A stretch of 47,379 nucleotides of DNA from Fidelibacterota bacterium (GCA_045569095.1 JBJKZU010000089.1:1-47379), one strand, 5' to 3'; counted from the first letter of the stretch, positions 4,653 through 32,721 are shown. Notes: a model not told the origin generated them from the letters alone. Program-made: numbers and translations.

Positions 4653-5234
4653 ATGTTTATTAGACCATGGGTTTATGTAATTGTTTTAGTGATAATAATA
4701 GCTTTAATAGCAGTTATGCAACCTGATGGTGTGGAAGAACAACTACCAATTATTAGTAAGATACCAGAATTTGATTTGGTTGACCAAAACAGTAAACAGT
4801 TTACTCTTGAAAATGTACAAGGCAATGTATGGTTAGCAGATTTTATTTTCACGACATGTTCTGGCCCTTGTCCAATTATGACAGAAAGAATGAGTATGGT
4901 CCAACATGATTTACTCGAAATTGATAAACTAAAATTTGTTTCCTTTACTGTTAACCCGGACTATGATACACCGGAAGTGCTAAAAAAATATGCGCAACGA
5001 TTCGATGTGGATGATAGTTCCTGGTCTTTTGTGACTGGTAAATATGACCAGATTCAGGAATTAATAGCAGATGGATTTAAAATGGGTGATACAGAAGAAA
5101 TTGTTTTTCATAGTACACGTTTTGCTTTGGTTGATCATGAAGGAAATCTTCGTGGTTATTATTCTGGAACAGAGCCGGCAGAACATGAAATTTTGATGCG
5201 TGATATTCAATCTTTAATAAATGATATACGTTAA
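4653..5234 (+). CDS. SCO1/SenC family copper chaperone / thiol-disulfide protein
   Basis: N-terminal TM anchor, a CxxxC motif (FTTCSGPCP) and a downstream conserved His (FHSTRFALVD). I prefer the ATG at 4653; the TTG at 4647 overlaps the ctaB stop. Confidence 0.85.
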   Translation: MFIRPWVYVIVLVIIIALIAVMQPDGVEEQLPIISKIPEFDLVDQNSKQFTLENVQGNVWLADFIFTTCSGPCPIMTERMSMVQHDLLEIDKLKFVSFTVNPDYDTPEVLKKYAQRFDVDDSSWSFVTGKYDQIQELIADGFKMGDTEEIVFHSTRFALVDHEGNLRGYYSGTEPAEHEILMRDIQSLINDIR

Positions 5235-5760
5235 TATGTTTGCCGCAAAAACTGATAATTTTTGGCTGAGAATAATTTATATAATTTCTGTTATAATATC
5301 AGGTGCAGTAGCGTTTTTAATTCTTGGTCCAAGACCAGCAGGAATTGAAGGATCTCTAGATGTTTCTGTTCTGCCCATTATAAATGCAACTCTAAATGGA
5401 ATAACTACTGTTCTATTAATTGTTGGATACATTTTAATTAGACTAAAGAAGCGGCAGCAGCATAAAAATGTTATGTTGTCAGCTTTCGGTACATCAACGG
5501 CATTTTTAATTAGTTACGTTATCTACCATTGGTTTAAAAGTGGCCCGAAGTTGTATACAGGTGATTGGACAACATTATATTACTTCATTTTAATATCCCA
5601 CATTCTGTTAGCTGCTATCATAGTGCCCTTAGCACTTATCACCTTATATCGCGGATGGAATAATCATATTGGTATACATAGAAAAATTGCCAGGATCACT
5701 TTACCACTATGGCTTTATGTCTCTGTGACCGGGGTGATAATTTATTTTATGTTATATTAG
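5221..5760 (+). CDS. DUF420 family membrane protein (commonly linked to heme-copper oxidase operons)
   Basis: About 175 aa with 4 TM helices, last gene of the cox cluster. An alternative start is the ATG at 5236, 1 nt after the SCO stop. Confidence 0.7.
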   Translation: MIYVNMFAAKTDNFWLRIIYIISVIISGAVAFLILGPRPAGIEGSLDVSVLPIINATLNGITTVLLIVGYILIRLKKRQQHKNVMLSAFGTSTAFLISYVIYHWFKSGPKLYTGDWTTLYYFILISHILLAAIIVPLALITLYRGWNNHIGIHRKIARITLPLWLYVSVTGVIIYFMLY

Positions 5761-8700
5761 TGAATTTACTTGAACATTCTGCTGGATATCTTTAACTAAC
5801 CCACCAAAATTTTTATCAATTATGAAACCGTGCTTATAGAAAAATTCTTCTTGGAAGAAACCAACTATAATGTAATGAACACCTTTGTTCCTTAACCTGC
5901 TCATTAGTTCATCCATAAGCCGGTTACTTAAATGTTTATTTCTATATTTTGAGCGAATAACAATCCACTCAAAATGAACAATATTAGTTTTTTCTGATTC
6001 TTTCCAGTAAACGCCTCCAACTAGTCGATCTTTCATGTCAAATATCAGCAAGAATTCATGATTTCCCTGAAATACAGGCTCAAGGTTTGATTTAATTAAT
6101 AAGGAATGGAAACGGGCGATCTCCTTAGGGTGAAAAGGGGGTCTTATTCTATAACCATTGCCGTCATTATCCTCACACAACATAACTAAATCAATACGGC
6201 CATGTTCTCCTTCATCCATTGTTACTAGCTCAATAAAATCTGCAGCTGCCAGATGCTTAAACACTAGGTGAGTAAGAAAATGTTGTTCTTCATCGTTTAC
6301 TTTTAAATTTTCATGGATATGATGAAGTCTATTCTGCAAATCATCTTCGGTTACTTTTCTGGCACGCAAATCGCGCAGTAATTCCCATAATAAATCCTTT
6401 AGTTCCTGGCGTGAATCCTTCAAGCAGGTCATAAGAAAAAATCTTACCCGAGTTTCAGGATATTCTAATAATAGGTCACCAAGGTTATAATCCTGGTACA
6501 ATTCCTGCAATATAGTTGTCCGTGCTTGTAATGTTGCATTTTGGTTTAGATCAAGCCACCGCTCGTATCGCAATGCGGCGAAAACCATTCGTTTGGTTAA
6601 CACTCCATCATTATTCACTTCATCGACAAAATCATCAATTCGATCAATACTTAAACCAAATTCCTTGGCTTTCTTGAGTTTAATCTTGTCTTTGTTTACC
6701 TCTTCTTTAAATTGTGCAATTATAGGTATTCCATATTTGACTTTTGCTACTTGCAATATCACTGAGAAAATTAATTCCCAATCAGCCATTCGTTTTAAAC
6801 CGGGGTATTGATTTTCTGTGTCTTCAATAAATTCACCATAGATACTAAAAAGTAGATTTGCAATTCCCGTTGTATTATTTCGATTAGAAATCGAAATCAA
6901 TCTCGTTCCGGATGCGTAATCATGTTCAGGAATAATCAAGTTTTTTGGAGAAGGATCACCAATTCTAACCTTTTTATCAGAACGCCACCAGAAATTGATG
7001 TAAGCAGCTGCACCACTCCATATAAAATGAAGCCAACGCATTTGCCAACGATCTGGAGCTAAATTTTCCTCAATTTCACTTCTATTTCTTTCGAGATATT
7101 GATGGAGTGTTTCACCGGGGATATATTCTTCGGTATATAAATTATATTCGGGCCAATAACCGCCAAATTCTTCAACAAAATTTTGTCCATGAATAGATGA
7201 TCCCATTATTACTAGCCATTTAATCTCTTCTTCCATGAATATTTTTTCATGCTCTTCATTTATATTAATGGCGAAGTTGTATGCTTCATCATGTTTGGTT
7301 TGAACCAAAATACGTAATACACTTTTTCCATGGTTTTTACCTAAAAAGGTAACCCATACACCATCTGGTTGAATATCGTCTAAATCTATTAAACTATGAT
7401 CATAGAAAAGAAATATCGATTCTCTGATAACAGCTGTATTGATTAGCGCTGATACTAACATTTCTCTTAGTTCAGGTTTTACTAGTTCGTCAAATACGAT
7501 TACATCATTCCAAGTATACTCAGTACCATTCTTCCGGTTAATGGCCAACTTTTGATTCGGTCCGATCCATGAGCGAAAACCATTCACTAGGTTATATTGT
7601 GCCTTTTGAGCGTATGAAATGATACTTTTTGGACAATCTGAAATTTGCCACCAATATAATTCTGCACGTGCCCAGATATATTTTGTCGGATGATTAATGC
7701 CATAGTTAGCAACAAGCGGTAGTAATATCTGAATAAATGAGAGTTGCTCTTTTGTGATCCTTTTAATATCCTTTCTAAATTGACCAAGTTTCGACAAAAT
7801 AGCCTCAAAATGATTGTCTTTTAATAATTTTACATTTACTGTAAATCCATTTTTTGATTTCTCTTCATAATATTGCTGATGGGTCTCAGATAACAATTCA
7901 AAAAATAGTTCTCCGGATAATTCTGGGATCATTGTCTCTATAGCTTTCATTCGAAAAGATGGATCAGTGAAATTTCTAAAGCTTATTAAAATGTTGAATG
8001 CAATTCGAGTGAGGTCACCATGATTAGATTCCAATAGATAGTTAAATGGAATAAAACCGTTTAATTGTCCAGCATATAATTGTCTGGTTGCTTTATGCAA
8101 ATTACCAAGATCAGGTAAACTGACAGAATCTTCAATATTTACCATATCTTTATCACTATGATCAGTAATTGTCGGAAACTCTAGCTGTAGAATTTTTATT
8201 GGTTCAAATTTTGTTAATTGAAATGCACTCTTACCGATAAATTTTGCGAACGTACTATTGCCTAACCATAATTCTGGACTCAGGAGTAATTCCTGGATAT
8301 CAAGACTGTCTTCCAGTGTATGATAAATAAAATCACCAATTACCAGTTTGGAATTATTCCACGATAACTTTAAACTGATCTTATTATTCTTAATGGATAT
8401 TTTTGAACCATTCCATTTTACATCATTTCTGCTGACTCCTTTTTCACGCAGGAGCCAATTTGGAATATGGATCTGATAATTATTGTATGATAAAGTGATA
8501 TGATTTTTCTCATACATGGGATTAATTATCTCATGGAAATTCTTCAAAATCTGTTTTCGTTTATATGTCCCCTTTTGTGTCAATTCGTCATCTGAATTAA
8601 AATCACGTTTAATAATTGCAAAATTGATCACGCGTTCAAATGGCGCAAGGAAACTATTCACCGATTGAACCAGAGAACTATAGTATTCACGGATTGTAAC

Positions 8701-10371
8701 TAAGCTTGCATTGGAAATATCCATTGGCAGACTATCCGGTTCTGAATAAATAAGTAAAGTATTGAATTCTAAACCATCTCCCACAAGGAATGCTGATTTT
8801 ATTCCATCAAAATCTTGGAACATGTTTTCAATTTTTTGGGGTGAAATAGTTTGACCACGACTATTTTTGTAAATTTCTTTTTTACGGTCAATTATATAAT
8901 AATGATCATATTTATTTTTAAATATATCCCCAGTATGAAACCAACCATCCACTAGAGTGGAACCGTAATTTTTACCAAAATATGATGAAGATACGTAGGG
9001 TCCATTTATAAGTAATTCTCCATCATCAGCTAAAGTAAGTTGTATTCCGGGTAATGGTACACCTACTGAATCAGGCTGGTATTCATTAATAGGTGTCATT
9101 GTAATTCCACCAGTTGCTTCGGTCATACCATAGCCACTTAATAGGTTAATTCCGTTACTCTGAAAAAAACGAAATACATCAGGGTCCAAATATCCAGCAG
9201 CTGAAAGCCCATATTTCAAATTTCCACCCGTTATTTTGTTTACAATATTTTTTATTTCTTTTTCTTTTCCATCACTAACGGGTTTGATTGAATCTGTGTG
9301 TTCCATCAATTGGATCCATCTTTTCGGTACACTGATAAAAATGGTAGGCTTAATTAGACGAAAGTCCTTTAAAAGTGATTTAAAATATGGAGATTCTGCG
9401 AATGTATAGGTTGCACCCCAAAAAATAGACCCCAATAATTCAAAGTATCTGCCAAATGTATGGTACAATGGTAGAAAGCAAAGGAATATATCGTCGCACG
9501 AAAAATCGGGAAGTGCCAATGCACGGGCAAAACGTTTGGTAACTATATTTTCTTGGGTGAATACAATTCCTTTTGGTTCATCAGTTGTTCCAGAGGTATA
9601 CATTACTGTGGCAAGATCATGCATAGAACACTGGTTGATACGTTTTAGCACATTTATATTAACAGAATCAACTGCTTGTGAAATAAAACTTTCCCATGGT
9701 TTGGCAAAGATAATTGCTTCTGCAGGGTCATCCAGGTGATAGATATCCAACGATTTTTGTTCAACTTTTGATTCTCTAAGAATAATTTGCACCGATTGTC
9801 CACCAATAAATAATTGTGTAATAGTTGAATTATCAATAATGAATGCTAGATGTTCTGGAGTAGTTGTAACTGGAATCGGTACTATTGTTATATGAAATGA
9901 AAGGCAAGCTAAGTCTATCAGCGCACCACGAATCGAATTCTCGGTAAATATGCCAATCGTGATATTTTTATCCGATATTGATTCAATAGCACAAAGCGCT
10001 TGACCAATTTGAATAATTTGGTCCCATATTTCTTGGTAAGTGAAATTGCGTATTTGATTTCCTTCAATTTCCTGAAAACATATTTTATCCCCATAATATT
10101 GTGCTCGGTGATTGATCAAATGTCCGACTGTTAATTTAGATTCAAGTATTAATTCATGAATTACCTCGAACCATTCTTCAATTTTATTTTCTTCGGAAAT
10201 AGTTTTATTTACGATCGATAAATGCCCTAATTCTAGAAAATCGTGTAGTTCCTTCTGATTAGGGTTTGAATCTTTTATCTGACTCGCTTTTGCAAAAAGA
10301 TCATTGGCTGTAGGTTGACTATCAAACAGGCTTTCAAGGTATTGAGAATGGGCTGATTTTTGGTTATTCAT
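5752..10371 (-). CDS. 1,539-aa multidomain protein: ANL-family acyl-AMP/CoA ligase + large unknown region with kinase-like core + C-terminal GNAT acyltransferase
   Basis: A single uninterrupted ORF. ANL motifs: MYTSGTTDEPKG, GYGMTEATGG, FHTGDI, IIDRKKEIYKNSRGQTISP. GNAT-like C-terminus: EWIVIRSKYRNKHLSNRLMDELM...FYKHGF. Confidence 0.85.
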   Translation of the reverse strand: MNNQKSAHSQYLESLFDSQPTANDLFAKASQIKDSNPNQKELHDFLELGHLSIVNKTISEENKIEEWFEVIHELILESKLTVGHLINHRAQYYGDKICFQEIEGNQIRNFTYQEIWDQIIQIGQALCAIESISDKNITIGIFTENSIRGALIDLACLSFHITIVPIPVTTTPEHLAFIIDNSTITQLFIGGQSVQIILRESKVEQKSLDIYHLDDPAEAIIFAKPWESFISQAVDSVNINVLKRINQCSMHDLATVMYTSGTTDEPKGIVFTQENIVTKRFARALALPDFSCDDIFLCFLPLYHTFGRYFELLGSIFWGATYTFAESPYFKSLLKDFRLIKPTIFISVPKRWIQLMEHTDSIKPVSDGKEKEIKNIVNKITGGNLKYGLSAAGYLDPDVFRFFQSNGINLLSGYGMTEATGGITMTPINEYQPDSVGVPLPGIQLTLADDGELLINGPYVSSSYFGKNYGSTLVDGWFHTGDIFKNKYDHYYIIDRKKEIYKNSRGQTISPQKIENMFQDFDGIKSAFLVGDGLEFNTLLIYSEPDSLPMDISNASLVTIREYYSSLVQSVNSFLAPFERVINFAIIKRDFNSDDELTQKGTYKRKQILKNFHEIINPMYEKNHITLSYNNYQIHIPNWLLREKGVSRNDVKWNGSKISIKNNKISLKLSWNNSKLVIGDFIYHTLEDSLDIQELLLSPELWLGNSTFAKFIGKSAFQLTKFEPIKILQLEFPTITDHSDKDMVNIEDSVSLPDLGNLHKATRQLYAGQLNGFIPFNYLLESNHGDLTRIAFNILISFRNFTDPSFRMKAIETMIPELSGELFFELLSETHQQYYEEKSKNGFTVNVKLLKDNHFEAILSKLGQFRKDIKRITKEQLSFIQILLPLVANYGINHPTKYIWARAELYWWQISDCPKSIISYAQKAQYNLVNGFRSWIGPNQKLAINRKNGTEYTWNDVIVFDELVKPELREMLVSALINTAVIRESIFLFYDHSLIDLDDIQPDGVWVTFLGKNHGKSVLRILVQTKHDEAYNFAININEEHEKIFMEEEIKWLVIMGSSIHGQNFVEEFGGYWPEYNLYTEEYIPGETLHQYLERNRSEIEENLAPDRWQMRWLHFIWSGAAAYINFWWRSDKKVRIGDPSPKNLIIPEHDYASGTRLISISNRNNTTGIANLLFSIYGEFIEDTENQYPGLKRMADWELIFSVILQVAKVKYGIPIIAQFKEEVNKDKIKLKKAKEFGLSIDRIDDFVDEVNNDGVLTKRMVFAALRYERWLDLNQNATLQARTTILQELYQDYNLGDLLLEYPETRVRFFLMTCLKDSRQELKDLLWELLRDLRARKVTEDDLQNRLHHIHENLKVNDEEQHFLTHLVFKHLAAADFIELVTMDEGEHGRIDLVMLCEDNDGNGYRIRPPFHPKEIARFHSLLIKSNLEPVFQGNHEFLLIFDMKDRLVGGVYWKESEKTNIVHFEWIVIRSKYRNKHLSNRLMDELMSRLRNKGVHYIIVGFFQEEFFYKHGFIIDKNFGGLVKDIQQNVQVNSLI
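5797..6159 (-). other. GNAT-like acyltransferase domain of the 1,539-aa protein (aa ~1405-1525)
   Basis: Beta-strand / motif-A-like segment VHFEWIVIRSKYRNKHLSNRLMDELMSRL, followed by IIVGFFQEEFFYKHGF. Boundaries are approximate. Confidence 0.6.
6772..7374 (-). other. protein-kinase-like / APH-like core, possibly catalytically degenerate (aa ~1000-1200)
   Basis: Motif order runs GKSVLRILVQTK, EEEIKWL, hinge-like YTEEYIPGETL, then catalytic-loop-like RIGDPSPKNLII. There is no His before the Asp and no DFG. Assigned by eye only. Confidence 0.35.
8512..10119 (-). other. AMP-binding (ANL) adenylation domain of the 1,539-aa protein (aa ~85-620)
   Basis: Full ordered set of ANL core motifs. It looks paralogous to the FAA1-type ligase at 28948-30777. 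Confidence 0.85.
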
Positions 10372-10399
10372 CTAGAGTATAATAATATGTTTTTTAAAT

Positions 10400-10428
10400 T
10401 AAAAAAAAAGGCCTTCTAATCGAAGGCC
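10400..10428 (-). terminator. rho-independent terminator ending the TonB-receptor / cargo / PorV-like operon
   Basis: On the minus strand: GGCCTTC-GATTA-GAAGGCC (stem halves at 10409-10415 and 10421-10427), followed by a 9-U tract (10400-10408). It lies 23 nt downstream of the PorV-like stop. Confidence 0.8.
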
Positions 10429-10450
10429 CTTTTGAAATAATAAAATATTA

Positions 10451-11548
10451 CTAAAGTCCGATCGAAAATGTTAGTCTATTGACTAACCCTAAGACACCCA
10501 TATCAGATACAGAATAATCTACACTAAAGTTGTAAGGTATAAAGGGAAACATTGCTGATGAAAGGCCAAAACCGAAGGCTGTTTTACTAGTATATCCATG
10601 AGCATTATCTTTATCAAGCATATCAGGTAGGTCATCAGAATCAATACTGTCATCTTCATCATCACTAAACTGAATAAATTTACTTTCTAGTCCAGCTCGC
10701 AGATAAAGACCACCCATTACTTTGACTTCAACGCCTCCAGCATAATATGGGTTATAATCTCTTGGGTCGTAATAGTCAATACTAACAGTGGCTTCAAGCG
10801 CATCATTTTTCATAATCGCATTTGGACCAACAGGTGTAATTGCGAACCCAGCACGAAAAGCCATGGGTAAGGCCCATTCTTCCGTTTGTAATTGTGCGAT
10901 TACATCTGGGTTAGCTTCTTGATCTGCATAGGGGTCCGTATCAATTTTTAAATCTGTACCCTTAAGCTGTAGTTTAGTTCCAAAATTTGTTATAGCCATT
11001 CCAATTATTAACCCAGAGAATCCTGTTTGGTATTGCGAACCCATATCAAAACCAAAAGCGGTGGCACTGGAAAAAGAAATGGATTCCTGGATTATTTTTC
11101 CATGAACACCAACTGTGAATCGATCCGAAATTTTTCGGCCGAACCCTAAACCCAGGGCCACATCAGAAGCACGGAAAACGACTTTACTATCCTGGTCAAA
11201 CTCAGTAGTCTTTTTCATTTCGCCCATATCCAAGTTATTAAGACTTATACCGATATTGCCGATTGTACCCACGGGTATAACCAGACCAAAATAACTGTGT
11301 TTCATATCAGCGATCCAATTGTATTGAGTTAGTAAAATCTGTATATCCGTGGCATGGGCAATGCCAGCAGGATTCCAGTGTAAGGCAGATGCATCGGTGA
11401 CGCTAGCTGTGTACGCACCACCAAGAGCCATGGCTCTGCTGCCTACACCAATCTTTAAAAAATTGGCAGCTGATGTACCTGTATTATCAAACTGCGCAAA
11501 CATAAAACAGTTAAAAGAGATTATAGCTATAATTATGTTTTTATTCAT
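10451..11548 (-). CDS. PorV/PorQ-family (FadL-like) outer-membrane beta-barrel
   Basis: Signal peptide, N-terminal signature FLKIGVGSRAMALGGAYTA...ALHWNPAGIA, alternating beta-strand pattern, and a C-terminal aromatic-rich strand. Confidence 0.7.
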   Translation of the reverse strand: MNKNIIIAIISFNCFMFAQFDNTGTSAANFLKIGVGSRAMALGGAYTASVTDASALHWNPAGIAHATDIQILLTQYNWIADMKHSYFGLVIPVGTIGNIGISLNNLDMGEMKKTTEFDQDSKVVFRASDVALGLGFGRKISDRFTVGVHGKIIQESISFSSATAFGFDMGSQYQTGFSGLIIGMAITNFGTKLQLKGTDLKIDTDPYADQEANPDVIAQLQTEEWALPMAFRAGFAITPVGPNAIMKNDALEATVSIDYYDPRDYNPYYAGGVEVKVMGGLYLRAGLESKFIQFSDDEDDSIDSDDLPDMLDKDNAHGYTSKTAFGFGLSSAMFPFIPYNFSVDYSVSDMGVLGLVNRLTFSIGL

Positions 11549-14500
11549 TTTATCACCGCTAGTTTTCCTGTGAATTCTTTGTCATTTGCAATAACGTGGA
11601 AGACATATACCCCAAACGATACTTCCTGATTATTATATGTACGTAGATCCCAGGCTTCAATACTAGGGCCTCTGTAACCTGGACTGTTCACATCATGTTT
11701 GATTACTTGTACTAATTCTCCGGCCGTATTGAAAATTCGAATTAAGCATTCTTCCGGTAGACCCATGAATTGAACCTCCCGTATGAATGCGATATGCTCA
11801 TAAACGGACGTAGCATTATATGGATTCGGCACAACGACAATTTCCTCTAAAATGCTATCGGTTACAGTATAAGCATTTGCAGTAGTTTCTATATGATAGA
11901 CATCATTGCCAGGCGATAAAGGATTTCTAAAATATATGTTATACACATCTCCTGGCTGAAAAAGAGTTTCATTCTTGTTGAATTGGAACATCCATCCAAT
12001 ATTGGTATTGGTATAGTAATCTGCCATGCCGACGCCTGTATAATCTTCATACACAGGCATTACAAAGAAATTTTTGATGAATTTGTAATGGCTTGGATTT
12101 TCAGCGTCCTCTTCGTAGATAGGCTTTGATCCAGCTGCCATATAAATAACAGCATTGATTTTTACGTTATCTTCAAGGGACCAGACCTCAAAAGGTATAT
12201 CTATTGTCTCTATGACACTTAGAGTTGCATTGAAATAAGTAGCAATAGAACCATCATTTGTAAATCTGAACTCAATATCCTTTTGTAGTAAATCACTATC
12301 AGGCCTATCTGATGGTTGAGGATCCAAGGGTGTATTTTCAACGAATCCAGCCCATGTACCATCATTCGAATTTGGATTAATGCCATTAAATAATATAGAG
12401 CCTGTTGTGTCCGAATTATTGGTTTGCTTTGCTGAGTCAAAACTGGTAACGGACCACGATCCTAAGGAAAACACGGGAATAAAACCATCCACGACATGTT
12501 TTAGTTGGCCAGATTCCACATCAGTATCATTTGATACAACAATGTCACCTGTCGATGTATTAACCATGTTCCATGAATTTACCGTTGCTGTATCACCAAC
12601 TATTGTTTGATTAAAGGTTACTTCATAGTTATAACCTTTACTTTCGAAATCTTGGGGCGATAATGAATCACCAAGGAAATCAAGGACAAAAGCGTCAGCT
12701 GGGACCAATTGTAAGATAGCATCAGACTTTCCTGATGTGTGGGTCGCCGTTTCAGGTATAGATCCTCCAGTGTATCCGGCTGCTTTTTTTTGTGCAACGA
12801 TTGCTATCGTATTATCATTATCACTGTAAAAAGCGTTCTTTGCTTTGGGATTCTCCATTGGGTCAACAGGCGCACCCGCCCAGTCATCAACGCCATCATA
12901 AGCTGATACAGCATACCAATATTCATAACCATTAATGATATTATTATCAACGTATGAATATTTTACCCCAGAATTAGAACCTAGATTATAATAAATGAGA
13001 GGATCCGTCATTACATGAGCCCCACTTTGATTATCATCATAATCATATATAGCTAACGGTTTATAGAAATCTGTAGGATCTCCATTTACATCAGTTATAA
13101 CCGTTCCCCATGTATTGCCTCTATCTGTACTTCGATAAACTCGATAACCTTGAAATGCATTATTCCCAGTAACGGGATCAATAGAAAATTCACTGCGATC
13201 ATCCCACATCAAAACAACTCTTCCTTCATCAACCGAAGATTGGACGACTGGTTGATCAGGTGGTTTTGGAGTAGCGCAGTTGTTATCATAAAGAGATTGA
13301 AACAGTTTTGCATTTCGAATTAAATCAGTTTCATTTATTCCAGCAAAATCTGCAAAGGTAAAAATTACTTGCTCTCCAGGAGCAACATCCATTGGCCCAC
13401 CTGCAATTGCCCAAGTAATATCGGGTCCATAACTATATGGTTTTTGAAAAATATCAAACTCATTAGGTTCAATATTTTGAGGGGTTTGAATTCCGTGGGT
13501 CATCTGCTCATTATATGCTTGCGCATCGCTTTGGGCATCTTGACTATACTCAAAGGTATAAAAGTTGGTTACACCATATGTGGTATCAGTGCCGTCGCTG
13601 TTATATTTTGTTAAATCAAGAAACTTAGCACCTATCCATCCAACACCAGATGTGAGGTAGCCTTGTACTGCATCATCACGATCATAAACAATAGCAAAAT
13701 TTTCTAAAAGATGAGCATCTGTTGTGTCTACTAATTTTTCAGCAATATGAGGATCATTTTCAGTAATAAATAGTGCCATATCATCTGTCCATTCCGCACC
13801 GCCCTGTTCCGGTGCGTCTGGATCTCCGGCAATACCCATATAGAGGTCTTTCAGTGTATCTTTACCAACATTCGTCATTTTTTGAATAAAGATCAATCCG
13901 TCATTCCCAAAGGTACTAGAGTAGTTCAATACCCAGACATCAAATCGTACGTTTAATGGCCCGACACCCTGATTGCTTTCAAACGTATTGCCTTCTTGAG
14001 GGTCGTTATCTGTTACTACAAAATAGGCTTCACGATCCGCCTGCACTCCCAATCCGCATGGTGCATCAGGAAAACCACCCGGCCCCAGCTCTGGCTCAAT
14101 GCCTGGGAAATACAACGTATCAGAGCTGCCATCAGCATTATAAACAACTGACTCAAAAGTACCGGTTGGATCTTTTTCCCGTGGCCATAAAGCAGGCCAT
14201 GATTCAGGTACGTCACTAAATGCAATACCAATATTTGCATCAGTATCCGCATAACCGGCATCATATCCAGGTAGGGGTTCAAATTCTTCTTCATGATCGC
14301 GTACACTGCCACGGACGCCAACGGATACGGATGGTAAGCCATTAATTAACGCTCCTACCATTGGCGATTGCGTCCAGTAATAAGTGCAACAACCAGATTT
14401 CGCCATACTGCCCGCCGGGAATTCATGATTCAGTCCCCAGCGATCGTAACCATAAATTGCTGCATTAGACATCCGCAAGACCATGTTGCCTTTATCTAGT

Positions 14501-14682
14501 ACGGATAGTTTACGGTCTGCGTAGCCCATGGATCTATTTAGGCGTTCTGGTATTCTACCTTTTGCTGGGGCTACGTAATAATCATAGTAATCAGCTTTTG
14601 TAATATTGGGAATACCCTCTGAATTAATACTAGAACAAAAAACGAAAGTAATAAATGTAATTAATTTTATCTTATTTATCAT
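11545..14682 (-). CDS. 1,045-aa secreted protein of unknown function with an FN3-like segment and a T9SS-like C-terminal domain
   Basis: Signal peptide MINKIKLITFITFVFCSSINS and an FN3-like segment (VVLMWDD...GYRVYRSTDRGNTW). No catalytic motif recognised. Its start overlaps the receptor stop (TAATG) and its stop overlaps the PorV-like start (ATGA). Confidence 0.75.
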   Translation of the reverse strand: MINKIKLITFITFVFCSSINSEGIPNITKADYYDYYVAPAKGRIPERLNRSMGYADRKLSVLDKGNMVLRMSNAAIYGYDRWGLNHEFPAGSMAKSGCCTYYWTQSPMVGALINGLPSVSVGVRGSVRDHEEEFEPLPGYDAGYADTDANIGIAFSDVPESWPALWPREKDPTGTFESVVYNADGSSDTLYFPGIEPELGPGGFPDAPCGLGVQADREAYFVVTDNDPQEGNTFESNQGVGPLNVRFDVWVLNYSSTFGNDGLIFIQKMTNVGKDTLKDLYMGIAGDPDAPEQGGAEWTDDMALFITENDPHIAEKLVDTTDAHLLENFAIVYDRDDAVQGYLTSGVGWIGAKFLDLTKYNSDGTDTTYGVTNFYTFEYSQDAQSDAQAYNEQMTHGIQTPQNIEPNEFDIFQKPYSYGPDITWAIAGGPMDVAPGEQVIFTFADFAGINETDLIRNAKLFQSLYDNNCATPKPPDQPVVQSSVDEGRVVLMWDDRSEFSIDPVTGNNAFQGYRVYRSTDRGNTWGTVITDVNGDPTDFYKPLAIYDYDDNQSGAHVMTDPLIYYNLGSNSGVKYSYVDNNIINGYEYWYAVSAYDGVDDWAGAPVDPMENPKAKNAFYSDNDNTIAIVAQKKAAGYTGGSIPETATHTSGKSDAILQLVPADAFVLDFLGDSLSPQDFESKGYNYEVTFNQTIVGDTATVNSWNMVNTSTGDIVVSNDTDVESGQLKHVVDGFIPVFSLGSWSVTSFDSAKQTNNSDTTGSILFNGINPNSNDGTWAGFVENTPLDPQPSDRPDSDLLQKDIEFRFTNDGSIATYFNATLSVIETIDIPFEVWSLEDNVKINAVIYMAAGSKPIYEEDAENPSHYKFIKNFFVMPVYEDYTGVGMADYYTNTNIGWMFQFNKNETLFQPGDVYNIYFRNPLSPGNDVYHIETTANAYTVTDSILEEIVVVPNPYNATSVYEHIAFIREVQFMGLPEECLIRIFNTAGELVQVIKHDVNSPGYRGPSIEAWDLRTYNNQEVSFGVYVFHVIANDKEFTGKLAVIK
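11548..11838 (-). other. C-terminal beta-sandwich resembling a T9SS sorting domain (last ~97 aa)
   Basis: VVVPNPY...LIRIFNTAGELVQVI...FGVYVFHVIANDKEFTGKLAVIK has the motif order of Por_Secre_tail-type CTDs, but the sequence is divergent. Confidence 0.5.
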
Positions 14683-17600
14683 TAGAGCCTCACCGTGATA
14701 CCAATTTCAATATGCCTTGGTGCCTTCCAAAAATAAGGACGGTACATCCACATTGGTGATGTATTTGGATTGGTAGATTCGGTTGGTGTTCCTGTATCAC
14801 TGAAAACATTATTGACATTTGAATTATCCAGTACATTGTCTATATCAGCGTAAAGCCTAAGGTTGGCTAATTTAAGTGGGATATCATAATAGGCCCGCAT
14901 ATTCACTATCGCAGTGCTAGGCATCCTTGCCGAATAGGGATCATCAATGGGACGACCTCTAGCATCTGTTGGAGTATATGGCAAACCACTTCCGTAATTA
15001 CCGATAATATTTAATCCGAATCCCTTTGGATGCCTATAATCAACGCCATAATTAATTACATGAGTTTGATCCCAGGACATAGTAAATGTACGGTTATAGT
15101 CATGCCAGCCATAGACCGAAGCCAAATAGGCCACGTCCCAATGGAAAGATTCATTTGGCGCACTACCTTCCGCCCTAGAAAGCGTGTAGTTCAAGTACCA
15201 GGCTAAATTATTTTTAAAACTCTGCCGTAGTTCCAGTTCAAATCCACGACTATTAGCATAATCATGGTTTTCGTAGAGAGCGTACTGGGAAGGGTTTGCA
15301 TCATATATCGTCGAGGCAATTAAATCGTAAATATCTTTGTAATAAATTGTAAGACTAAGAATGTAAGTTTCTACAAGATGAGCACGGAAACCAAATTCAT
15401 ACTGCACAGTTCGCTCCGGCTTTACATTTGGACTACCAATTGTTGGTATATAAAAATCAGCAGTGTTAACAGGGAATGGGGCATAAGTATTCCCAAAATT
15501 AAAGTTATCGATATTTATTCCTGTCAGGCCTGGGGCAAGTCCACCCCCTCCATTTGTATTAGTGTAGCTGTATGCGTTTGATAAATTAGGATAGTCGAAA
15601 AAGTGTCCGTAACTCGCGTGAAATGCAATATTATCTGTAATGGGGTAACCAAAACCTATCCGGGGACTCCATTTTTGCTTATGGCTAGCCTTTTTTGCAG
15701 CTTCAAAAATGTAATTACCGTCACTATCACGTTTTGGGTTTCCATCATCATCAAGCTCTGCGTAACCCCAATCAGCATCTTCCATCTGGTCTTGCGTAAG
15801 TTGACTTAGATCCGATGGTTCATAGGTCTGACCATCATATTCATATAATGGTGTTCTACTAGGTTCAGGATAGCGTGAATTGGGATTTAGGCCATCGAGT
15901 CGCAGGCCTACATTAATGATGAATTCTTTGTATTCCATTTTATCCTGGATATAAAAAGATGATTCCTCAGGCTTGAATTCATACATTATCCAGCTTGGAT
16001 CTGAAGTGTTGCCAAAAGGACCACCGCCAATTGACGATCCAGAGAAATTTGAAATCTCATGATTTTTCCGGTCAAAACCTGTTTTGATCTGGTGGACATC
16101 GTTCACCTGCCAGGTTAATTCGGCACCAAATTCGCTGTAACTTGTACCATACCACTGGTAATGATGATACGTTGAATAACCAGGTCTGATTGTATCGCCA
16201 TAAAAGTTTACAACGGGGTAACTACCATAAAATTCATAGTTTGACGTACCATCATAGGCATCGCCTTCTCTAAGTATAGGGTCAACACCCACACTATATT
16301 CGCCATTACCATCTACGTCTTCATAATCTTCTTGATCTGGTATACCATCATCATTTTCGTCGCGGAAAATTGTCCATAACCCATCTCCATCCCAATCATT
16401 ATAATATTCTCCATCATCCCAGGTACCATTATTATTACTATCTTTCCAGTATTCTGCGGAACCGAAAGGACTGTACTGTCCGTCACCATTGTAATCTGCA
16501 TATGGTTCAGCATAATAACTTAGCCAGTTCATATTATCCCCAGCCGTGACTGTTCCTGGAATATAGCCTTCCCAATCACTGGGTATTGACACTTCTTCGC
16601 CCCATAGTTCATGCTTTTTATTTAATAACGGTTTATATCCATTGTGGCTGTTCCTGGAATAATTTTGCCCTTTTAAGGTGAAAAACATATTTTCTGTTAT
16701 GGCGTAGTTCAGTTTGAAATGAGTTTGCTCTGTTGTACCATAGCTGGTGGAATAACGACCAGGTAATTGCCTATAACTCATACTAAAGCCTTTCCCTTTA
16801 GATTGATAGAGATTAGTGCCTAGCGTAAGTTTTGCATTTTTGATTGGTTTTATAACCAATTTACCTGTGATTCGCTGGTACTCATTAAAAGTGCCTGTCT
16901 CTTCCCAGGCTCCCTTTTTTAATTCAACCGAGTCTGAAATTCCATTTGAGGTTATATCAGCCATTGCATATGTATCTTCACCGGCATCATACATGCCATC
17001 ATTATCAACATCAACTGTTAACACATCTCGTGGCAACTGATTTTTCCAAAGGTTGCCCTTCGATTCGTTAAAATCTGCAGTAAAATTAAAGTTTGCTATG
17101 GAACCAATGCCTGGAAATACAGGCCCACTAACATTGATAATATTTCTGCTTGTACCCCAGTTATTACTATTACCACCAAATTGATCCGAAGCTGTCGTTA
17201 CGCCGGCATGATAATTAGGAGTGCCTTCCTTGGTTACAATATTTACAATACCGCTCATAGCTTTTCCATACTCTGCATTAAATGCACCAGTAATCAAGGA
17301 TAGTTCAGAAATCGCATCTTTGGCTATATCCATGCTCATCCCACCATATAAAGCGTTTTCAATAAGAAAACCATCTACCAGATATGAAATTTCACCACTA
17401 CGGCCGCCCCTTAGATGAATACCGCTATTGTCATTTTCATTTTCTACCACGCCGGCCATTGTATTTATTATTTCATCAAAGGAGTTCACGGGCATATTCA
17501 CAATATCATCATCTTCAATCGTGGTAGTACTGGCAGTTTGATCCCGTACAATTGCTGGTCTTTTTGCTTCCACGATAACTTCCTCTCCTTCAACAGCAGA

Positions 17601-17906
17601 GATTTCCATCTTGAAATTCACAGTGGTAGTGCGGTCGGCGTTAACGCGGATATCTGTAATTGTAATCGTTTTATAGCCAATATAAGATGCACTGATAGTA
17701 TATGACGCTGCTGGTACATTCAGAATGATGTAGTTACCTTCCATATCCGATGCGCTACCAATACTGCTGCCTTTTAAAAGGATATTGACACCAAATAATG
17801 CTTCGCCTGTCTCTGTATCGGTAATTTGGCCGACAATTTTACCGGTATCGCCGGCAAATAACATGGATACCCAAAGAAATGAGACAATAAATAGTTTTAT
17901 TTTCAT
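14682..17906 (-). CDS. TonB-dependent outer-membrane receptor with an N-terminal CarboxypepD_reg domain
   Basis: Signal peptide, CarboxypepD_reg-like beta-sandwich (GKIVGQITDTETGEALFGVNILLKGS...GNYIILNVPAASYTISASYIGY), plug motifs (IHLRGGRSGEISYLVDGF, ITGAFNAEYGKAMSGIVNIVTKEG) and a long beta-barrel. Confidence 0.85.
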   Translation of the reverse strand: MKIKLFIVSFLWVSMLFAGDTGKIVGQITDTETGEALFGVNILLKGSSIGSASDMEGNYIILNVPAASYTISASYIGYKTITITDIRVNADRTTTVNFKMEISAVEGEEVIVEAKRPAIVRDQTASTTTIEDDDIVNMPVNSFDEIINTMAGVVENENDNSGIHLRGGRSGEISYLVDGFLIENALYGGMSMDIAKDAISELSLITGAFNAEYGKAMSGIVNIVTKEGTPNYHAGVTTASDQFGGNSNNWGTSRNIINVSGPVFPGIGSIANFNFTADFNESKGNLWKNQLPRDVLTVDVDNDGMYDAGEDTYAMADITSNGISDSVELKKGAWEETGTFNEYQRITGKLVIKPIKNAKLTLGTNLYQSKGKGFSMSYRQLPGRYSTSYGTTEQTHFKLNYAITENMFFTLKGQNYSRNSHNGYKPLLNKKHELWGEEVSIPSDWEGYIPGTVTAGDNMNWLSYYAEPYADYNGDGQYSPFGSAEYWKDSNNNGTWDDGEYYNDWDGDGLWTIFRDENDDGIPDQEDYEDVDGNGEYSVGVDPILREGDAYDGTSNYEFYGSYPVVNFYGDTIRPGYSTYHHYQWYGTSYSEFGAELTWQVNDVHQIKTGFDRKNHEISNFSGSSIGGGPFGNTSDPSWIMYEFKPEESSFYIQDKMEYKEFIINVGLRLDGLNPNSRYPEPSRTPLYEYDGQTYEPSDLSQLTQDQMEDADWGYAELDDDGNPKRDSDGNYIFEAAKKASHKQKWSPRIGFGYPITDNIAFHASYGHFFDYPNLSNAYSYTNTNGGGGLAPGLTGINIDNFNFGNTYAPFPVNTADFYIPTIGSPNVKPERTVQYEFGFRAHLVETYILSLTIYYKDIYDLIASTIYDANPSQYALYENHDYANSRGFELELRQSFKNNLAWYLNYTLSRAEGSAPNESFHWDVAYLASVYGWHDYNRTFTMSWDQTHVINYGVDYRHPKGFGLNIIGNYGSGLPYTPTDARGRPIDDPYSARMPSTAIVNMRAYYDIPLKLANLRLYADIDNVLDNSNVNNVFSDTGTPTESTNPNTSPMWMYRPYFWKAPRHIEIGITVRL
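16272..16505 (-). other. cluster of EF-hand-like DxDxDG calcium-binding loops inserted in the receptor barrel (aa ~468-545)
   Basis: DYNGDGQYS, DSNNNGTWDDGE, DWDGDGLW, DENDDGIPDQED, DVDGNGEYS. One further loop, DVDNDGMYDAGE, lies at aa 299-310 (16971-17018). Confidence 0.6.
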
Positions 17907-18059: not shown

Positions 18060-19769
18060 ATGAGTAAGAAAAACGGAACAGGGAAACAACAATCAGTCCT
18101 ATTGTCGCAAGCGGAGATCAGTAAGTTGCTTGAAACAATACCATCTAATCTACGAGGTTATATTGATAGCTTACAAAATCAAATATCCAACATGTCTGCT
18201 ATTGGGCTAGCCCTTTCAAAAGAAAAGGATATGGATAAACTATTGGAAATGATCTTACTTGAAGCGAAACGTATTTCTAATGCTGATGGGGGCACCTTAT
18301 ACATGATGACTGATGATCAACGGTTAAAATTTTCCATTATGATTACTGATTCACTCAATATCCATATGGGTGGCACCTCTGGGAAAGAAATTCCTTTTTA
18401 CCCGGTAAAATTGTATATGGATGATGGCAAACCAAATAAGACCATGATTGCCGCAAATGCAGGTTTAACAGGATATACAATTAATATACCTGACGCCTAT
18501 AAGGCTAAGGGGTACGATTTTGCCGGTACAAAAGCTTTTGATGATAAAACTGGCTATCGGTCAAAATCATTTTTAACTGTACCGCTAAAAAATCACGAAG
18601 ATGAAATTATTGGTGTACTGCAATTATTGAATGCCCAAGATATTAAAACAAAAAAAGTGATACCTTTTTCAGAAGGTGTTCAAAAAAGTGTGGAAGCACT
18701 TTCCAGTCAGGCTGCAGTAGCGATCACTAATAAAAACCTAATCAAAGATCTTGAAGTATTATTCGAATCTTTCATCAAGTTGATTGCGTCGGCCATAGAT
18801 GCGAAATCACCCTATACAGGTGGTCATTGTTCTAGGGTTCCTGAAATAACTATGATGCTGGCAGAATCAGTAAATGAGATAAATGATGGTCCTTTTGCTG
18901 GTATACAGTTTACGGATAAGGAAATGTACGAATTGAAAATTGCGGCCTGGCTTCATGATTGTGGTAAAGTGGCTACACCAGAGGCTGTAGTTGACAAAGG
19001 AACAAAGCTGGAAACGATCTATGATCGTATACATACTGTAGCAACGAGATTTGAAGTACTAAAACGAGACGAGGAAATAAAATATTTGAAAAAGCAGCTT
19101 AAGATTCAAAAAGATGATTCCTTGATTGAAAATCAAAAGAAAGATGCCTTGAAAAAAGCAAGGACACTCTATCTGAAAAGAATCAAACAACAGGATGATG
19201 ATAAGGCGTTTATCGAGGAATCAAATGTTGGTGGTGAGTTCATGTCACAGGATCGTAAAGATAGGGTTAATAAGATAGCCTCATATCGTTGGAAGGATAA
19301 TGGTAGCCTAAAACCGTTTTTTTCCGAGGATGAGATATACAACCTTTGTATTAGCAGGGGAACGCTTACACCAGAAGAAAGAAAAATTATCAATGATCAC
19401 ATAGTTGTCACCATTGATATGCTGGAACAATTACCATATCCGAAGCATCTGCGCAATGTACCAGAATTTGCTGGTGGTCATCATGAAAAGCTGGATGGGA
19501 CTGGGTATCCAAAAGGGTTGAACCATTCTGAAATGTCTGTCCAGGCGAAAATTATGGCCATAGCCGATATTTTTGAAGCACTAACTGCCCGCGATAGACC
19601 ATATAAAAAAGGGAAAACTTTAAGTCAAGCAATGCGAATACTTGGTTTCATGAAAAATGATGCCCATATCGATACGGAATTATTTGAGGTATTTGTGAAG
19701 GAAAAAATATATCTGAAATACGCAGAAAGTTTTTTAGATCCTGAACAAATTGATAAAGTAGAATTATAA
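18060..19769 (+). CDS. GAF domain + HD-GYP domain protein (probable c-di-GMP phosphodiesterase)
   Basis: GAF-like N-terminal half, then HD motif WLHDCGK and GGHHEKLDGTGYPKGL. A GGGGAG Shine-Dalgarno lies 6 nt upstream of the ATG. Confidence 0.85.
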   Translation: MSKKNGTGKQQSVLLSQAEISKLLETIPSNLRGYIDSLQNQISNMSAIGLALSKEKDMDKLLEMILLEAKRISNADGGTLYMMTDDQRLKFSIMITDSLNIHMGGTSGKEIPFYPVKLYMDDGKPNKTMIAANAGLTGYTINIPDAYKAKGYDFAGTKAFDDKTGYRSKSFLTVPLKNHEDEIIGVLQLLNAQDIKTKKVIPFSEGVQKSVEALSSQAAVAITNKNLIKDLEVLFESFIKLIASAIDAKSPYTGGHCSRVPEITMMLAESVNEINDGPFAGIQFTDKEMYELKIAAWLHDCGKVATPEAVVDKGTKLETIYDRIHTVATRFEVLKRDEEIKYLKKQLKIQKDDSLIENQKKDALKKARTLYLKRIKQQDDDKAFIEESNVGGEFMSQDRKDRVNKIASYRWKDNGSLKPFFSEDEIYNLCISRGTLTPEERKIINDHIVVTIDMLEQLPYPKHLRNVPEFAGGHHEKLDGTGYPKGLNHSEMSVQAKIMAIADIFEALTARDRPYKKGKTLSQAMRILGFMKNDAHIDTELFEVFVKEKIYLKYAESFLDPEQIDKVEL

Positions 19770-23455: not shown

Positions 23456-23905
23456 ATGTCGGGCGATAATATAATAAGACGTGAATATGAATCTGACTAT
23501 GAGGTCAGTTATGAAAAAGTTAAAGAATATGTGCGTGTATTGGATGATAATAATCCCTATTATACAGATCGTGAATTTGTAAAATCCCTTGATGGCGGGC
23601 ATCCATTTGCACCCCCTACATTTGCTGCGATTTATTGTCAGCCAGCGCTGGAACATCTTTATTTCGACCCTGAATTCTCAAAATTGGTACCCCGTTTAGT
23701 TCATGGTGAACAGGAATATCATTTTTATGAGCCTGTGCGTGCAGGAGATATAATTCATACAAATGCAGTTATAGATAAAAATTATACTAAAACTAACCAG
23801 GCCGGTAAAGTCCATCGAATATTCGAGATCAAGACCAAATCAATTAATCAAGATAATAAACTAGTTTGTACCGGTCTTTATACGTTATTAATTAGAGGGG
23901 AATGA
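23456..23905 (+). CDS. MaoC-like hot-dog protein, N-terminal-type (non-catalytic) hydratase subunit
   Basis: 149 aa with a hot-dog-fold pattern (VHGEQEYHFYEPVRAGD). It is paired with the following MaoC gene by an ATGA overlap. Confidence 0.65.
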   Translation: MSGDNIIRREYESDYEVSYEKVKEYVRVLDDNNPYYTDREFVKSLDGGHPFAPPTFAAIYCQPALEHLYFDPEFSKLVPRLVHGEQEYHFYEPVRAGDIIHTNAVIDKNYTKTNQAGKVHRIFEIKTKSINQDNKLVCTGLYTLLIRGE

Positions 23906-24255
23906 TGGCTAAGAAAAAACAATCAAAATCAATAATTGGAAAATATATGCCTTACTATTATGCTGGCGCCAGCCTGGATTTTAATCTTATCCATATCGAT
24001 CAGGATTATGCCAAGGCCAATGGATTGCCTGGTATAATACTACAGGGCATGTGTACCATGGCATTAACCGCTAAACATCTTATTGATAAGGGGGATCCTG
24101 CACAACTAGGCACAATTAAAGTGCGTTTTCTGAATCCCGTCATGCCCGAAGATGAGCTAGTCTTTGATAGTATTACCAATGGACCTGATGTTTCTGTAAT
24201 TGTGAAAAATCAAAATGGTGGTAGGGTGCTTAAAGGAAAAGCTACACTAAAATGA
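23902..24255 (+). CDS. MaoC-type (R)-specific enoyl-CoA hydratase catalytic subunit
   Basis: 117 aa with a hydratase-2-like motif (SLDFNLIHIDQDYAKANGLPGIILQG) retaining the Asp and His. A GAGGGG Shine-Dalgarno lies upstream. Confidence 0.7.
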   Translation: MMAKKKQSKSIIGKYMPYYYAGASLDFNLIHIDQDYAKANGLPGIILQGMCTMALTAKHLIDKGDPAQLGTIKVRFLNPVMPEDELVFDSITNGPDVSVIVKNQNGGRVLKGKATLK

Positions 24256-25181
24256 CTGATCTGTTGTCAGGATTAACCCAAGAGATAATTAGTGGTATTG
24301 CATTGGGCTCTATCTATGCGCTTATAGCTTTGGGTTTTACCATGATCTACAAGGCCACCGAAGTCGTCAACTTTGCTCAGGGTGAACTTATGATGGTGGG
24401 GGCCTATATGAATTTTTTCTTTGTGACTACATTTTTATCTGCTGCGGGAACACCTACTCCGTGGACATTCTTGGTGGCCTTAGGTGGTAGTATGATATTT
24501 TCTGTATTGTTTGGCTATATATTAGATTTTATCATTAATAAGCCATTAAAAGATGAACCGATATTTTCCATAATTATGGCTACTCTTAGTTTGGCAATAA
24601 TTATTCGCGCTTTAGTAGCAATAATTGCGGGACCCATCAGTCTAGTGCCATTTTCTCCATTTGGAGACAGCGCAATTTCGTTCGGTAACATTGTTGTATC
24701 TGTTCTTGATCTATTTATTATTGGCAGCGCTATTGGATTGGTCATCATTTTTTACTATATCTTTCATTATACACGGTGGGGAATAGCCATGCAGGCCACT
24801 TCGGAAGATCCGATAGCGGCACAGTTGATGGGTATCCCGATTAAGCGCGTCTATGCATCGGTTTGGATTTTCTCTGCTATAGTTGCTACACTCAGCGGTA
24901 TCCTGTTGGCACCAAGAATTGCGTTACTAGATACAACCATGGGCTTCCTAGGGTTGAAAGCATTCCCAGCAGCTGTTTTGGGTGGTTTTGGTTCGATTCC
25001 TGGAGCCATAGTTGGTGGTGTTATATTAGGAGTAATCGAGACAGTTAGCATGGGGACACTGTCGTTCCACTTTCAATGGATTAAAGAGATCAATGACATT
25101 ATTCCCTGGATCGTACTTATAGCTGTGTTAATGATTAAGCCTGATGGTCTTTTTGGTGTTGAGAAAGTGAAAAAGGTCTAA
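24252..25181 (+). CDS. livH: Liv-type ABC transporter permease (LivH family)
   Basis: 309 aa, multi-TM, with a LivH-type N-terminus (GIALGSIYALIALGFTMIYKATEVVNFAQGE). ATGA overlap with the MaoC gene. Confidence 0.85.
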   Translation: MTDLLSGLTQEIISGIALGSIYALIALGFTMIYKATEVVNFAQGELMMVGAYMNFFFVTTFLSAAGTPTPWTFLVALGGSMIFSVLFGYILDFIINKPLKDEPIFSIIMATLSLAIIIRALVAIIAGPISLVPFSPFGDSAISFGNIVVSVLDLFIIGSAIGLVIIFYYIFHYTRWGIAMQATSEDPIAAQLMGIPIKRVYASVWIFSAIVATLSGILLAPRIALLDTTMGFLGLKAFPAAVLGGFGSIPGAIVGGVILGVIETVSMGTLSFHFQWIKEINDIIPWIVLIAVLMIKPDGLFGVEKVKKV

Positions 25182-26212: not shown

Positions 26213-26233
26213 TAATAAAAGGGAGGAGGAATT

Positions 26234-27409: not shown

Positions 27410-27426
27410 AGCTAAATAAATACATA

Positions 27427-27455: not shown

Positions 27456-27459
27456 GTTT

Positions 27460-32580: not shown

Positions 32581-32590
32581 GATATTCTCC

Positions 32591-32719: not shown

Positions 32720-32721
32720 AA

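Follow-up and report, generated by a model that had tools for sequence, protein, structure and literature searches.

A bacterial protein family that fuses an AMP-forming ligase, a kinase-like scaffold and a Gcn5-like acetyltransferase domain: a candidate self-supplying lysine acyltransferase

Bacterial GNAT lysine acetyltransferases (KATs) are sorted by two reviews into five types, namely those whose synthetase-like domain, of the NDP-forming kind, is N-terminal or C-terminal, those with small effector-binding domains (for cAMP, NADP or amino acids), those with a single GNAT domain and those with multiple GNAT domains, and neither an AMP-forming ligase nor a kinase-like domain occurs in any of the five (PMC11254643, PMC8556138). 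Here we describe a gene whose product carries both, on a 47,379-nucleotide stretch of DNA from a Fidelibacterota bacterium (GCA_045569095.1, JBJKZU010000089.1:1-47379; the whole stretch is hereafter called the window). Minus-strand positions 5752..10371 form a complete open reading frame (ORF) with an ATG start, identified by ORF calling and homologue searches as a member of what we call the ANL-scaffold-GNAT family; all protein features discussed below lie on this strand. A preliminary description of the DNA, made from the sequence alone, had divided the 1,539-residue product into an ANL ligase, a kinase-like core that may be a pseudokinase, and a GNAT domain at the C-terminus; Pfam together with AlphaFold2 (AF2) models and Foldseek supports this division, and every motif quoted there was recovered at exactly the residue numbers given. 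It had also known of no characterised protein with this architecture, and that statement holds: the two reviews (PMC11254643, PMC8556138) list none, a full-text literature search found no description of an AMP-forming ligase-GNAT fusion or of an ANL-scaffold-GNAT family, and the database names of relatives are generic only ('GNAT family N-acetyltransferase', 'AMP-binding protein', 'long-chain acyl-CoA synthetase'). This architecture is found in no characterised protein and in none of the published acetyltransferase types; its parts and its two-step logic are each known separately.

Type III KATs (M. tuberculosis Rv0998 and M. smegmatis MSMEG_5458, in which a cAMP-binding domain is joined to a GNAT domain) resemble the window protein in placing an N-terminal non-GNAT module before a C-terminal Pat-type GNAT domain, and were recovered as fold matches (4ava, 4avc, 4onu); their module, however, is a ligand-binding unit of 300-400 aa (PMC11254643), whereas that of the window protein is an enzyme plus a predicted pseudokinase scaffold. 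Type I KATs (Salmonella Pat, E. coli PatZ/YfiQ) are likewise large multidomain proteins encoded by stand-alone genes, with a C-terminal Gcn5-related domain that follows an acyl-CoA-synthetase-related module. In PatZ this module is an NDP-forming domain of the succinyl-CoA-synthetase/ATP-grasp type that is dead and senses acetyl-CoA (PMC8556138), whereas the window protein has an AMP-forming ANL domain with intact motifs and adds a scaffold of about 780 aa composed of beta, armadillo (ARM)-like, predicted pseudokinase and helical parts. PatZ is reported to be a homotetramer in a cryo-EM study (PMC12184503). The NDP-forming domain of type I/II KATs (700-900 aa; PMC11254643, PMC8556138) found no counterpart in the protein, either as a Pfam match (CoA_binding, Succ_CoA_lig, ATP-grasp_5) or by fold search. 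The fold match to PatZ spans only 166 columns, which correspond to the GNAT region. The two-step logic is familiar from pairs of enzymes that activate an acid and N-acylate an amine, such as ACSM2B with GLYAT, FadD33(MbtM)/MbtL with MbtK, or ACSS2 supplying KATs, in which an ANL ligase makes the activated acyl donor and a GNAT enzyme passes it to the amine. Unlike the window protein, these are separate proteins, some of them working with a carrier protein; here the two are fused and Pfam finds no carrier-protein domain in the chain, which makes CoA a plausible shuttle between the active sites.

The fused architecture is obligatory. A full-length search returned more than 120 homologues of 1,519-1,546 aa and 46-94% identity on independent contigs, from marine metagenomes and from metagenome-assembled genomes (MAGs) named Marinimicrobia, Neomarinimicrobiota or Fidelibacterota. 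Searched alone against 1.84 billion representatives, the middle region (aa 620-1400) matched only 310 clusters (50% identity), and every complete match was a protein of 1,470-1,710 aa with this region at about residues 600-1450. Six relatives at 19-33% identity all carry AMP-binding, C_3 and GNAT (6/6), and ligase-less or GNAT-less variants, which were sought to separate the modules, were absent from the 25 shorter matches inspected, all of which (25/25) begin within ANL sequence or are truncated and hence are fragments. A scan of GTDB species genomes counted at least 472 carriers, including Calditrichota/Caldithrix, Cytophagia and Melioribacteraceae. Carriers are mostly Marinimicrobia (SAR406), among whose retrieved matches the gene is near-universal, and further belong to Calditrichota, KSB1, Zixibacteria, Gemmatimonadota, Acidobacteriota, Ignavibacteria and Bacteroidota; when a 20%-identical member served as the query, MAGs of Gemmatimonadetes, Zixibacteria, KSB1, Acidobacteria, Kapaibacterium and Bacteroidales were returned. 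That separate ligase, unknown and GNAT genes were joined here by mis-assembly or by a read-through error of annotation is vanishingly improbable and for practical purposes already refuted, as nothing was found in its favour, the uninterrupted architecture recurs on hundreds of independent contigs from differing studies and phyla (some of them 0.4-4.5 Mb long), and AF2 modelling of aa 620-1539 with 30 homologues was confident over the domain junctions (mean predicted local distance difference test score, pLDDT, 83.8). The ORF is a single real one, as the preliminary description had taken it to be.

Residues 85-623 make up an adenylate-forming ligase of the ANL superfamily that belongs to the long-chain acyl-CoA synthetase/FadD11 type. 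They follow an N-terminal extension (aa 1-84; 10120..10371) that has no Pfam domain match and is poorly conserved in the alignment (19% mean pairwise identity). The large N-terminal subdomain (8977..10110) matches Pfam AMP-binding (PF00501, aa 88-465; E 1.4e-55, 189 bits against a cutoff of 29.9) and carries the motifs A3 (TSGTTDEPKG; MYTSGTTDEPKG at aa 257-268) and A5 (GYGMTEATGG, aa 413-422), while the C-terminal subdomain (aa 471-623; 8503..8961) matches AMP-binding_C_3 (PF23562, aa 504-623; E 4e-10, 40.5 bits against 20.8) and carries A7 (TGD, in FHTGDI at aa 478-483) and A8 (DRKKEIYKNSRG; IIDRKKEIYKNSRGQTISP at aa 493-511). A phmmer search of PDB sequences matched ANL enzymes alone, with E down to 5e-22, and the nearest NCBIfam models are long-chain-fatty-acid-CoA ligase and FadD11, at scores far below their curated cutoffs. 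Conservation was counted over 56 family representatives, which share about 20% identity in the middle region, and separately over 30 Marinimicrobia-clade sequences. The A3 residues T259, G261 and K267 are each kept in 55/56 representatives, and A5 E418, A7 D482 and A8 R496, K502 and G506 in 56/56 each; mean pairwise identity is 41% and 47% in the ANL subdomains, the C-terminal one being the most conserved portion of the protein, 33% in the GNAT domain and 22-30% in the scaffold. With its motif residues near-invariant and its subdomains better conserved than the rest of the protein, the ANL domain looks catalytic. ACSL/FadD11 synthetases, such as the ligase encoded at 28942-30777 of the window, have the same Pfam pair and the same motif order A3-A5-A7-A8-A10 (24% identity over 605 aligned positions), but lack the 84-aa N-terminal extension and the 916 extra C-terminal residues, and differ in the A10 motif, where the lysine of TPT(L/M/F)K is Thr or Ser in the ANL-GNAT proteins.

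This last difference concerns the adenylation lysine itself. The A10-like loop, TQKGTYKRK (aa 598-606; 8554..8580), was placed by BLASTP and family alignment. It had been suspected from a by-eye comparison that Thr occupies the canonical A10 position, and this proved correct: the BLASTP alignment with the window ligase is gapless at A10 and sets the TPTLK lysine on T602, and across the family the column reads T 33, S 22 and D 1 (n=56), so that the lysine by which ANL membership is checked at this position is absent. Two residues upstream, however, K600 is present in 55/56 representatives, within the family motif GELTPKG[TS][FY]xR, in which G601 (46/56) and R605 (56/56) are kept as well. Read from this alignment, the adenylation lysine has probably been relocated to K600 rather than lost.

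At the other end of the chain, aa 1395-1530 (5782..6189) form a Gcn5-like GNAT domain recognised by Pfam, Foldseek, profile search and alignment, with a GG motif at 1452-1453, an acidic E1468 on beta4 and a P-loop R1477-N-K-H1480-L-S1482. Three Pfam GNAT models match within aa 1412-1517 (Acetyltransf_1, 30.3 bits against a cutoff of 20.7; Acetyltransf_10, 29.1 against 23.6; Acetyltransf_7, 28.6 against 27), and the motif FYKHGF stands at aa 1511-1516. In Foldseek the GNAT-region matches are led by E. coli PatZ (9it0), M. smegmatis Pat (4onu) and M. tuberculosis Rv0998 (4ava, 4avc), and GNAT folds 2r7h and 3d8p match with template modelling scores (TMt) of 0.63-0.65. When a family profile of 12 diverse members (aa 624-1539) was searched against PDB sequences, Tetrahymena GCN5 came first (E 1.3e-12), followed by human KAT2A, PCAF and yeast Gcn5, and the next non-KAT GNAT appeared at 4e-6; the model for N-acyl amino acid synthases and OlsB-type enzymes, Acetyltransf_5 (PF13444), gave no Pfam match even at E<=1. 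By these profile and fold criteria, aa 1395-1530 are a predicted Gcn5/Pat-type GNAT domain, nearer to Gcn5, PCAF and Pat than to small-molecule GNATs. Gcn5/PCAF (KAT2) enzymes are its best profile match and have the GG motif, beta4 and P-loop register in common with it, but the acid of the window protein is displaced relative to the Gcn5 Glu, a P-loop Gly has become H1480 in the window lineage, and there is neither a bromodomain nor a eukaryotic context. The beta4 acid at E1468 is D or E in 52/56 representatives and E in 30/30 of the Marinimicrobia clade, and the first Gly of the pyrophosphate loop R/Q-x-x-G-x-G/A is kept in 49/55 representatives from other lineages. Among the 30 Marinimicrobia sequences, 11 different residues occur at this Gly site, with the flanks and the putative catalytic Glu fixed.

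The stretch between ligase and GNAT domain, about 780 aa described beforehand as unknown, is indeed without a Pfam family: at E<=1, no kinase, ARM or other family is found over aa 624-1411, the only trace being a sub-threshold AAA_22 match (aa 1298-1358; E 0.19, 12.5 bits against a cutoff of 27), and neither an NCBIfam scan nor phmmer against the PDB assigned a family to this region, where the family profile searched against the PDB gave just weak armadillo matches. It is not featureless, however, but a structured chain. The AF2 model of aa 620-1539 places a beta domain (aa 624-691), a linker of low confidence, stacked helix pairs (755-936), a bilobal alpha/beta unit (about 1000-1190), a helical bundle (to about 1377) and a disordered linker ahead of the GNAT domain (1397-1528). 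With the alignment, these are delimited as a small beta-rich domain of no known family with conserved IPNW, G.F.Y and P.LWLGN (aa 624-700; 8272..8502), ARM/HEAT-like alpha-helical repeats (aa 755-945; 7537..8109), a bilobal protein-kinase-like (PKL) domain (aa 1000-1190; 6802..7374) and, after its C-lobe, a helical bundle with conserved RYxRW and YPExR (aa 1191-1380; 6232..6801). The repeat assignment draws on the AF2 helices, on weak profile matches to designed armadillo proteins (E 0.009-0.3) and on a sub-threshold HEAT_2 match in one relative (P0177). On the models, aa 624-1380 are a rigid, predicted non-catalytic scaffold made up of beta domain, ARM/HEAT-like repeats, pseudokinase and helical bundle.

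A kinase- or APH-like order of motifs had been noticed at aa 1000-1170, including GKSVLRILVQTK (aa 1015-1026) and the catalytic-loop-like RIGDPSPKNLII (aa 1136-1147), and the fold, though not a sequence relationship, was found by Foldseek on AF2 models. With the model of aa 620-1539, tyrosine kinases and VPS34/PI3K matched the central part; a separate model of aa 950-1300 (pLDDT 90.9; predicted template modelling score, pTM, 0.87) gave 789 PDB matches at E<=0.001, and the 50 listed were all protein-kinase-like folds, among them FGFR2, KIT, JAK2, the APH-like PsiK, corramycin phosphotransferase and Bud32, at TM scores of only 0.35-0.47. The kinase assignment from these models is one at the level of the fold, with no sequence-family match. 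The catalytic loop of PKA reads RDLKPEN-LLID, and in the window protein beta6-GDPSPKN-beta7 (LIIP) would have the same spacing, given the strand order predicted by AF2. The catalytic-loop-like Asp recognised beforehand is therefore present in the window protein as D1139 with PKA-like spacing, but it is not a family trait, being kept in 18/56 representatives and 7/30 of the Marinimicrobia clade; N1144 is kept in 43/56. As mapped from the AF2 secondary structure, the predicted beta3 (aa 1030-1038) has no Lys and no Asp follows the predicted beta8. D1151 (in PEHDY), conserved in 49/56, was considered as DFG Asp and rejected, since it lies only 7 residues past N1144 and, by the AF2 strands, in the beta7-beta8 loop. 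Because a conserved beta3 Lys, HRD-type Asp and DFG Asp are all missing, the domain is probably a pseudokinase, and from the models we conclude that it would act as a non-phosphotransferring scaffold or ligand-binding module. With known pseudokinases it shares the bilobal PKL fold and, in the window protein, the catalytic-loop spacing x-D-x-x-P-x-N-L-I-I; unlike them, it combines low TM scores and the lack of a sequence-family match with a conserved residue set of its own (R1020, W1052, W1113, W1128, N1144, D1151).

The reading that we favour over its rivals, tentatively and as something short of probable, is that the protein is a self-supplying lysine acyltransferase by which the availability of free acid is turned directly into protein acylation. 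As a cytoplasmic enzyme it would unite two catalytic steps in one polypeptide: the ANL domain would activate a free carboxylic acid, which is probably a fatty acid of medium or long chain, with ATP to acyl-AMP and on to acyl-CoA, the relocated K600 serving as adenylation lysine, and the Gcn5-like GNAT domain would take the locally made acyl-CoA and N-acylate the epsilon-amine of a protein lysine, in client proteins or in the enzyme itself, while the ARM/pseudokinase scaffold may dock the client and/or pass on an allosteric signal. Eukaryotic KATs receive such a local acyl-CoA supply, e.g., from ACSS2 in the case of CBP/PCAF and from alpha-KGDH in the case of KAT2A. A bolder and more doubtful form of this proposal is that the family represents a sixth type of bacterial lysine acyltransferase, in which an active AMP-forming ligase, joined via an ARM-pseudokinase scaffold to a Gcn5-like domain, would make (fatty-)acyl-lysine marks on the spot, with K600 doubling as an auto-acylation switch. 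Several points weigh against self-supplied acylation. The canonical A10 position never holds a Lys, so that adenylation competence depends on K600 substituting for it. E1468 lies at +1 from the catalytic Glu of Gcn5 in the hidden Markov model alignment and at +2 in a gapless register, and its role as general base is putative. The first P-loop Gly is lost and hypervariable in Marinimicrobia (G in 2/30; H1480 in the window), which could weaken CoA binding. The preference for longer acyl chains would follow from family-level similarity well below curated cutoffs, and a cis target, i.e., self-regulation, may account for the fusion equally well.

This last possibility amounts to a fused 'Rosetta-stone' Pat-Acs pair, one of the two functional ideas of the preliminary description and still a live rival, in fact the main one, which we consider possible but rather unlikely. 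The GNAT domain would use product acyl-CoA to acylate a C-terminal lysine of its own ANL domain, with K600 as candidate, causing feedback inactivation, and the pseudokinase/ARM scaffold would position the domains or sense a metabolite. AMP-forming acyl-CoA synthetases are indeed the paradigm substrates of Pat-type GNATs, which inactivate them by acetylating a C-terminal Lys (PMC8556138), and PatZ, MsPat and MtPat are just the fold matches that the GNAT region retrieves first. It would also fit that the subdomain bearing the invariant K600 is the best conserved part, that the fusion is an obligatory one, that no partner gene is needed, and that bulk fatty-acid activation is covered by the separate conventional ligase at 28942-30777. 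Some 780 conserved scaffold residues, however, far exceed what a cis-regulator needs, given that the regulatory domains of type III KATs measure 300-400 aa (PMC11254643), and the usual ...GK context is missing from the A10 loop, whose lysine is non-canonical in position and followed by Gly. Permanent self-inactivation without a reversal enzyme would moreover be wasteful, and no sirtuin or AcuC-type deacylase lies beside the gene in the window or at five further loci read directly (L001-L005), nor did clustering of the neighbours at 85 loci show any that is common beyond Marinimicrobia.

The other idea of that description, N-acyl amino acid or aminolipid chemistry in one polypeptide, has been weakened and now appears improbable. 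Here the ANL domain would make acyl-CoA and the GNAT domain would acylate a free amine, for instance an amino acid or a polyamine, with ACSM2B plus GLYAT and FadD33/MbtL plus MbtK as two-enzyme analogues; the intact catalytic motifs of fatty-acid-ligase type would suit this, small amines are common GNAT acceptors, and the degenerate P-loop Gly of Marinimicrobia recalls GNAT-fold enzymes with unusual donors. On the other hand, it is specifically Gcn5 that the GNAT profile resembles (E 1e-12), and the fitting model, Acetyltransf_5, has no match; the protein has no membrane segment, neither lipid or biosynthetic neighbours nor a conserved operon turned up at the loci examined, and the large ARM/pseudokinase scaffold suggests protein-protein recognition. 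Decidedly improbable, finally, is a PatZ-like lysine acetyltransferase whose ANL domain is a sensor only (of ATP/AMP, acid or acyl-CoA) and gates a GNAT domain fed by pool acetyl-CoA. Type I/II KATs do carry an inactive acyl-CoA-synthetase-related domain as acetyl-CoA sensor (PMC8556138), and the absence of the canonical A10 Lys would be in line with such a role here. The PatZ-type domain, however, is inactive owing to a missing catalytic His (PMC8556138), whereas every ANL motif residue tested is kept in 55-56/56 representatives at about 20% overall identity and an invariant A10-loop Lys remains; such conservation is expected of a working enzyme, not of a ligand sensor.

The genomic context is that of a stand-alone gene, as had been proposed. 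At its 3' end it shares 9 nt with the convergent DUF420 ORF (5221-5760), the final gene of a CtaA-CtaB-SCO1-DUF420 cytochrome-oxidase assembly cluster in the window, and upstream an intrinsic-terminator-like hairpin with a 12-bp stem and a T run (10405..10433, minus strand), 33 nt ahead of the start codon, closes a PorV-like gene. The gap of 10372-10450 ahead of the start is nearly filled by this terminator, with no obvious room for a sigma-70-type promoter, and an Rfam scan of the whole window (1-47379) found no family at gathering score and no recognisable riboswitch or leader. In Marinimicrobia the gene is flanked on one side by a GAF-HD gene that diverges from it and on the other by the DUF420-CtaB-SCO1-CtaA cluster that converges on it (47 of the 85 loci compared), and one locus with this synteny carries a homologue at just 33% identity. 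The divergent neighbour encodes a GAF plus HD/HD_5 (HD-GYP-like) protein (window copy at 18060-19769, plus strand; also at loci L001, L080 and about 45 more), which could be a functional partner or reflect mere synteny. In the window, three outer-membrane genes on the minus strand (10451-17906) are inserted between the two, encoding a TonB-dependent receptor with a CarboxypepD_reg domain (14682-17906), a 1,045-aa protein without Pfam match (11545-14682) and the PorV-like beta-barrel (10451-11548); the syntenic locus L001 lacks this block. Neighbours in Zixibacteria, Gemmatimonadetes and further lineages are related neither to those in Marinimicrobia nor to each other, and a search for partners (deacylase, carrier protein, lipid-synthesis genes) in the window, at L001-L005 and in the 85-locus neighbour clustering found none common beyond the Marinimicrobia synteny. 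Because no neighbour gene is common outside Marinimicrobia, the ANL-GNAT protein appears functionally self-contained.

Elsewhere in the window, the conventional ACSL-type ligase (canonical A10 TPTLKVKRK; 28942-30777) is the last gene of an operon at 23456-30777 (plus strand) that also holds five genes for a Liv-type ABC transporter and two ORFs for hot-dog dehydratases (FAS1_DH/MaoC); this suggests a unit by which an organic acid is taken up and activated. What appears to be a catabolic cluster of acyl-CoA/acyclic-terpene type at 31777-37788 (minus strand) encodes an AtuA-family protein (32722-34515), an enoyl-CoA hydratase, short-chain dehydrogenases and two ORFs without Pfam match (35460-36584 and 36595-37788). 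A 973-aa fusion of a glycoside hydrolase family 3 (NagZ-like) domain with a beta-lactamase-fold domain (37917-40838, plus strand), near which lies a gene for the anhydro-MurNAc kinase AnmK (42846-43976, plus strand), looks like part of a peptidoglycan-recycling cluster.

Bacterial protein acylation is now explained by five GNAT architectures and by chemical acylation, none of which couples donor synthesis to transfer. If a self-supplying acyltransferase is what the family encodes, it would provide a direct enzymatic link from free-acid availability to protein acylation, a bacterial single-chain counterpart of the local acyl-CoA supply to eukaryotic KATs, and a way in which bacteria could attach long acyl chains to lysine, a modification whose bacterial writers are, to our knowledge, essentially unknown. 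The two-residue, family-wide shift of the ANL adenylation lysine would amount to a natural experiment, since this residue is regarded as fixed in position, and the family would add a new prokaryotic pseudokinase scaffold. Marinimicrobia (SAR406) are among the most abundant bacteria of the deep ocean, and we know of no genetic system for them; characterising one member of the family biochemically would annotate thousands of genes.

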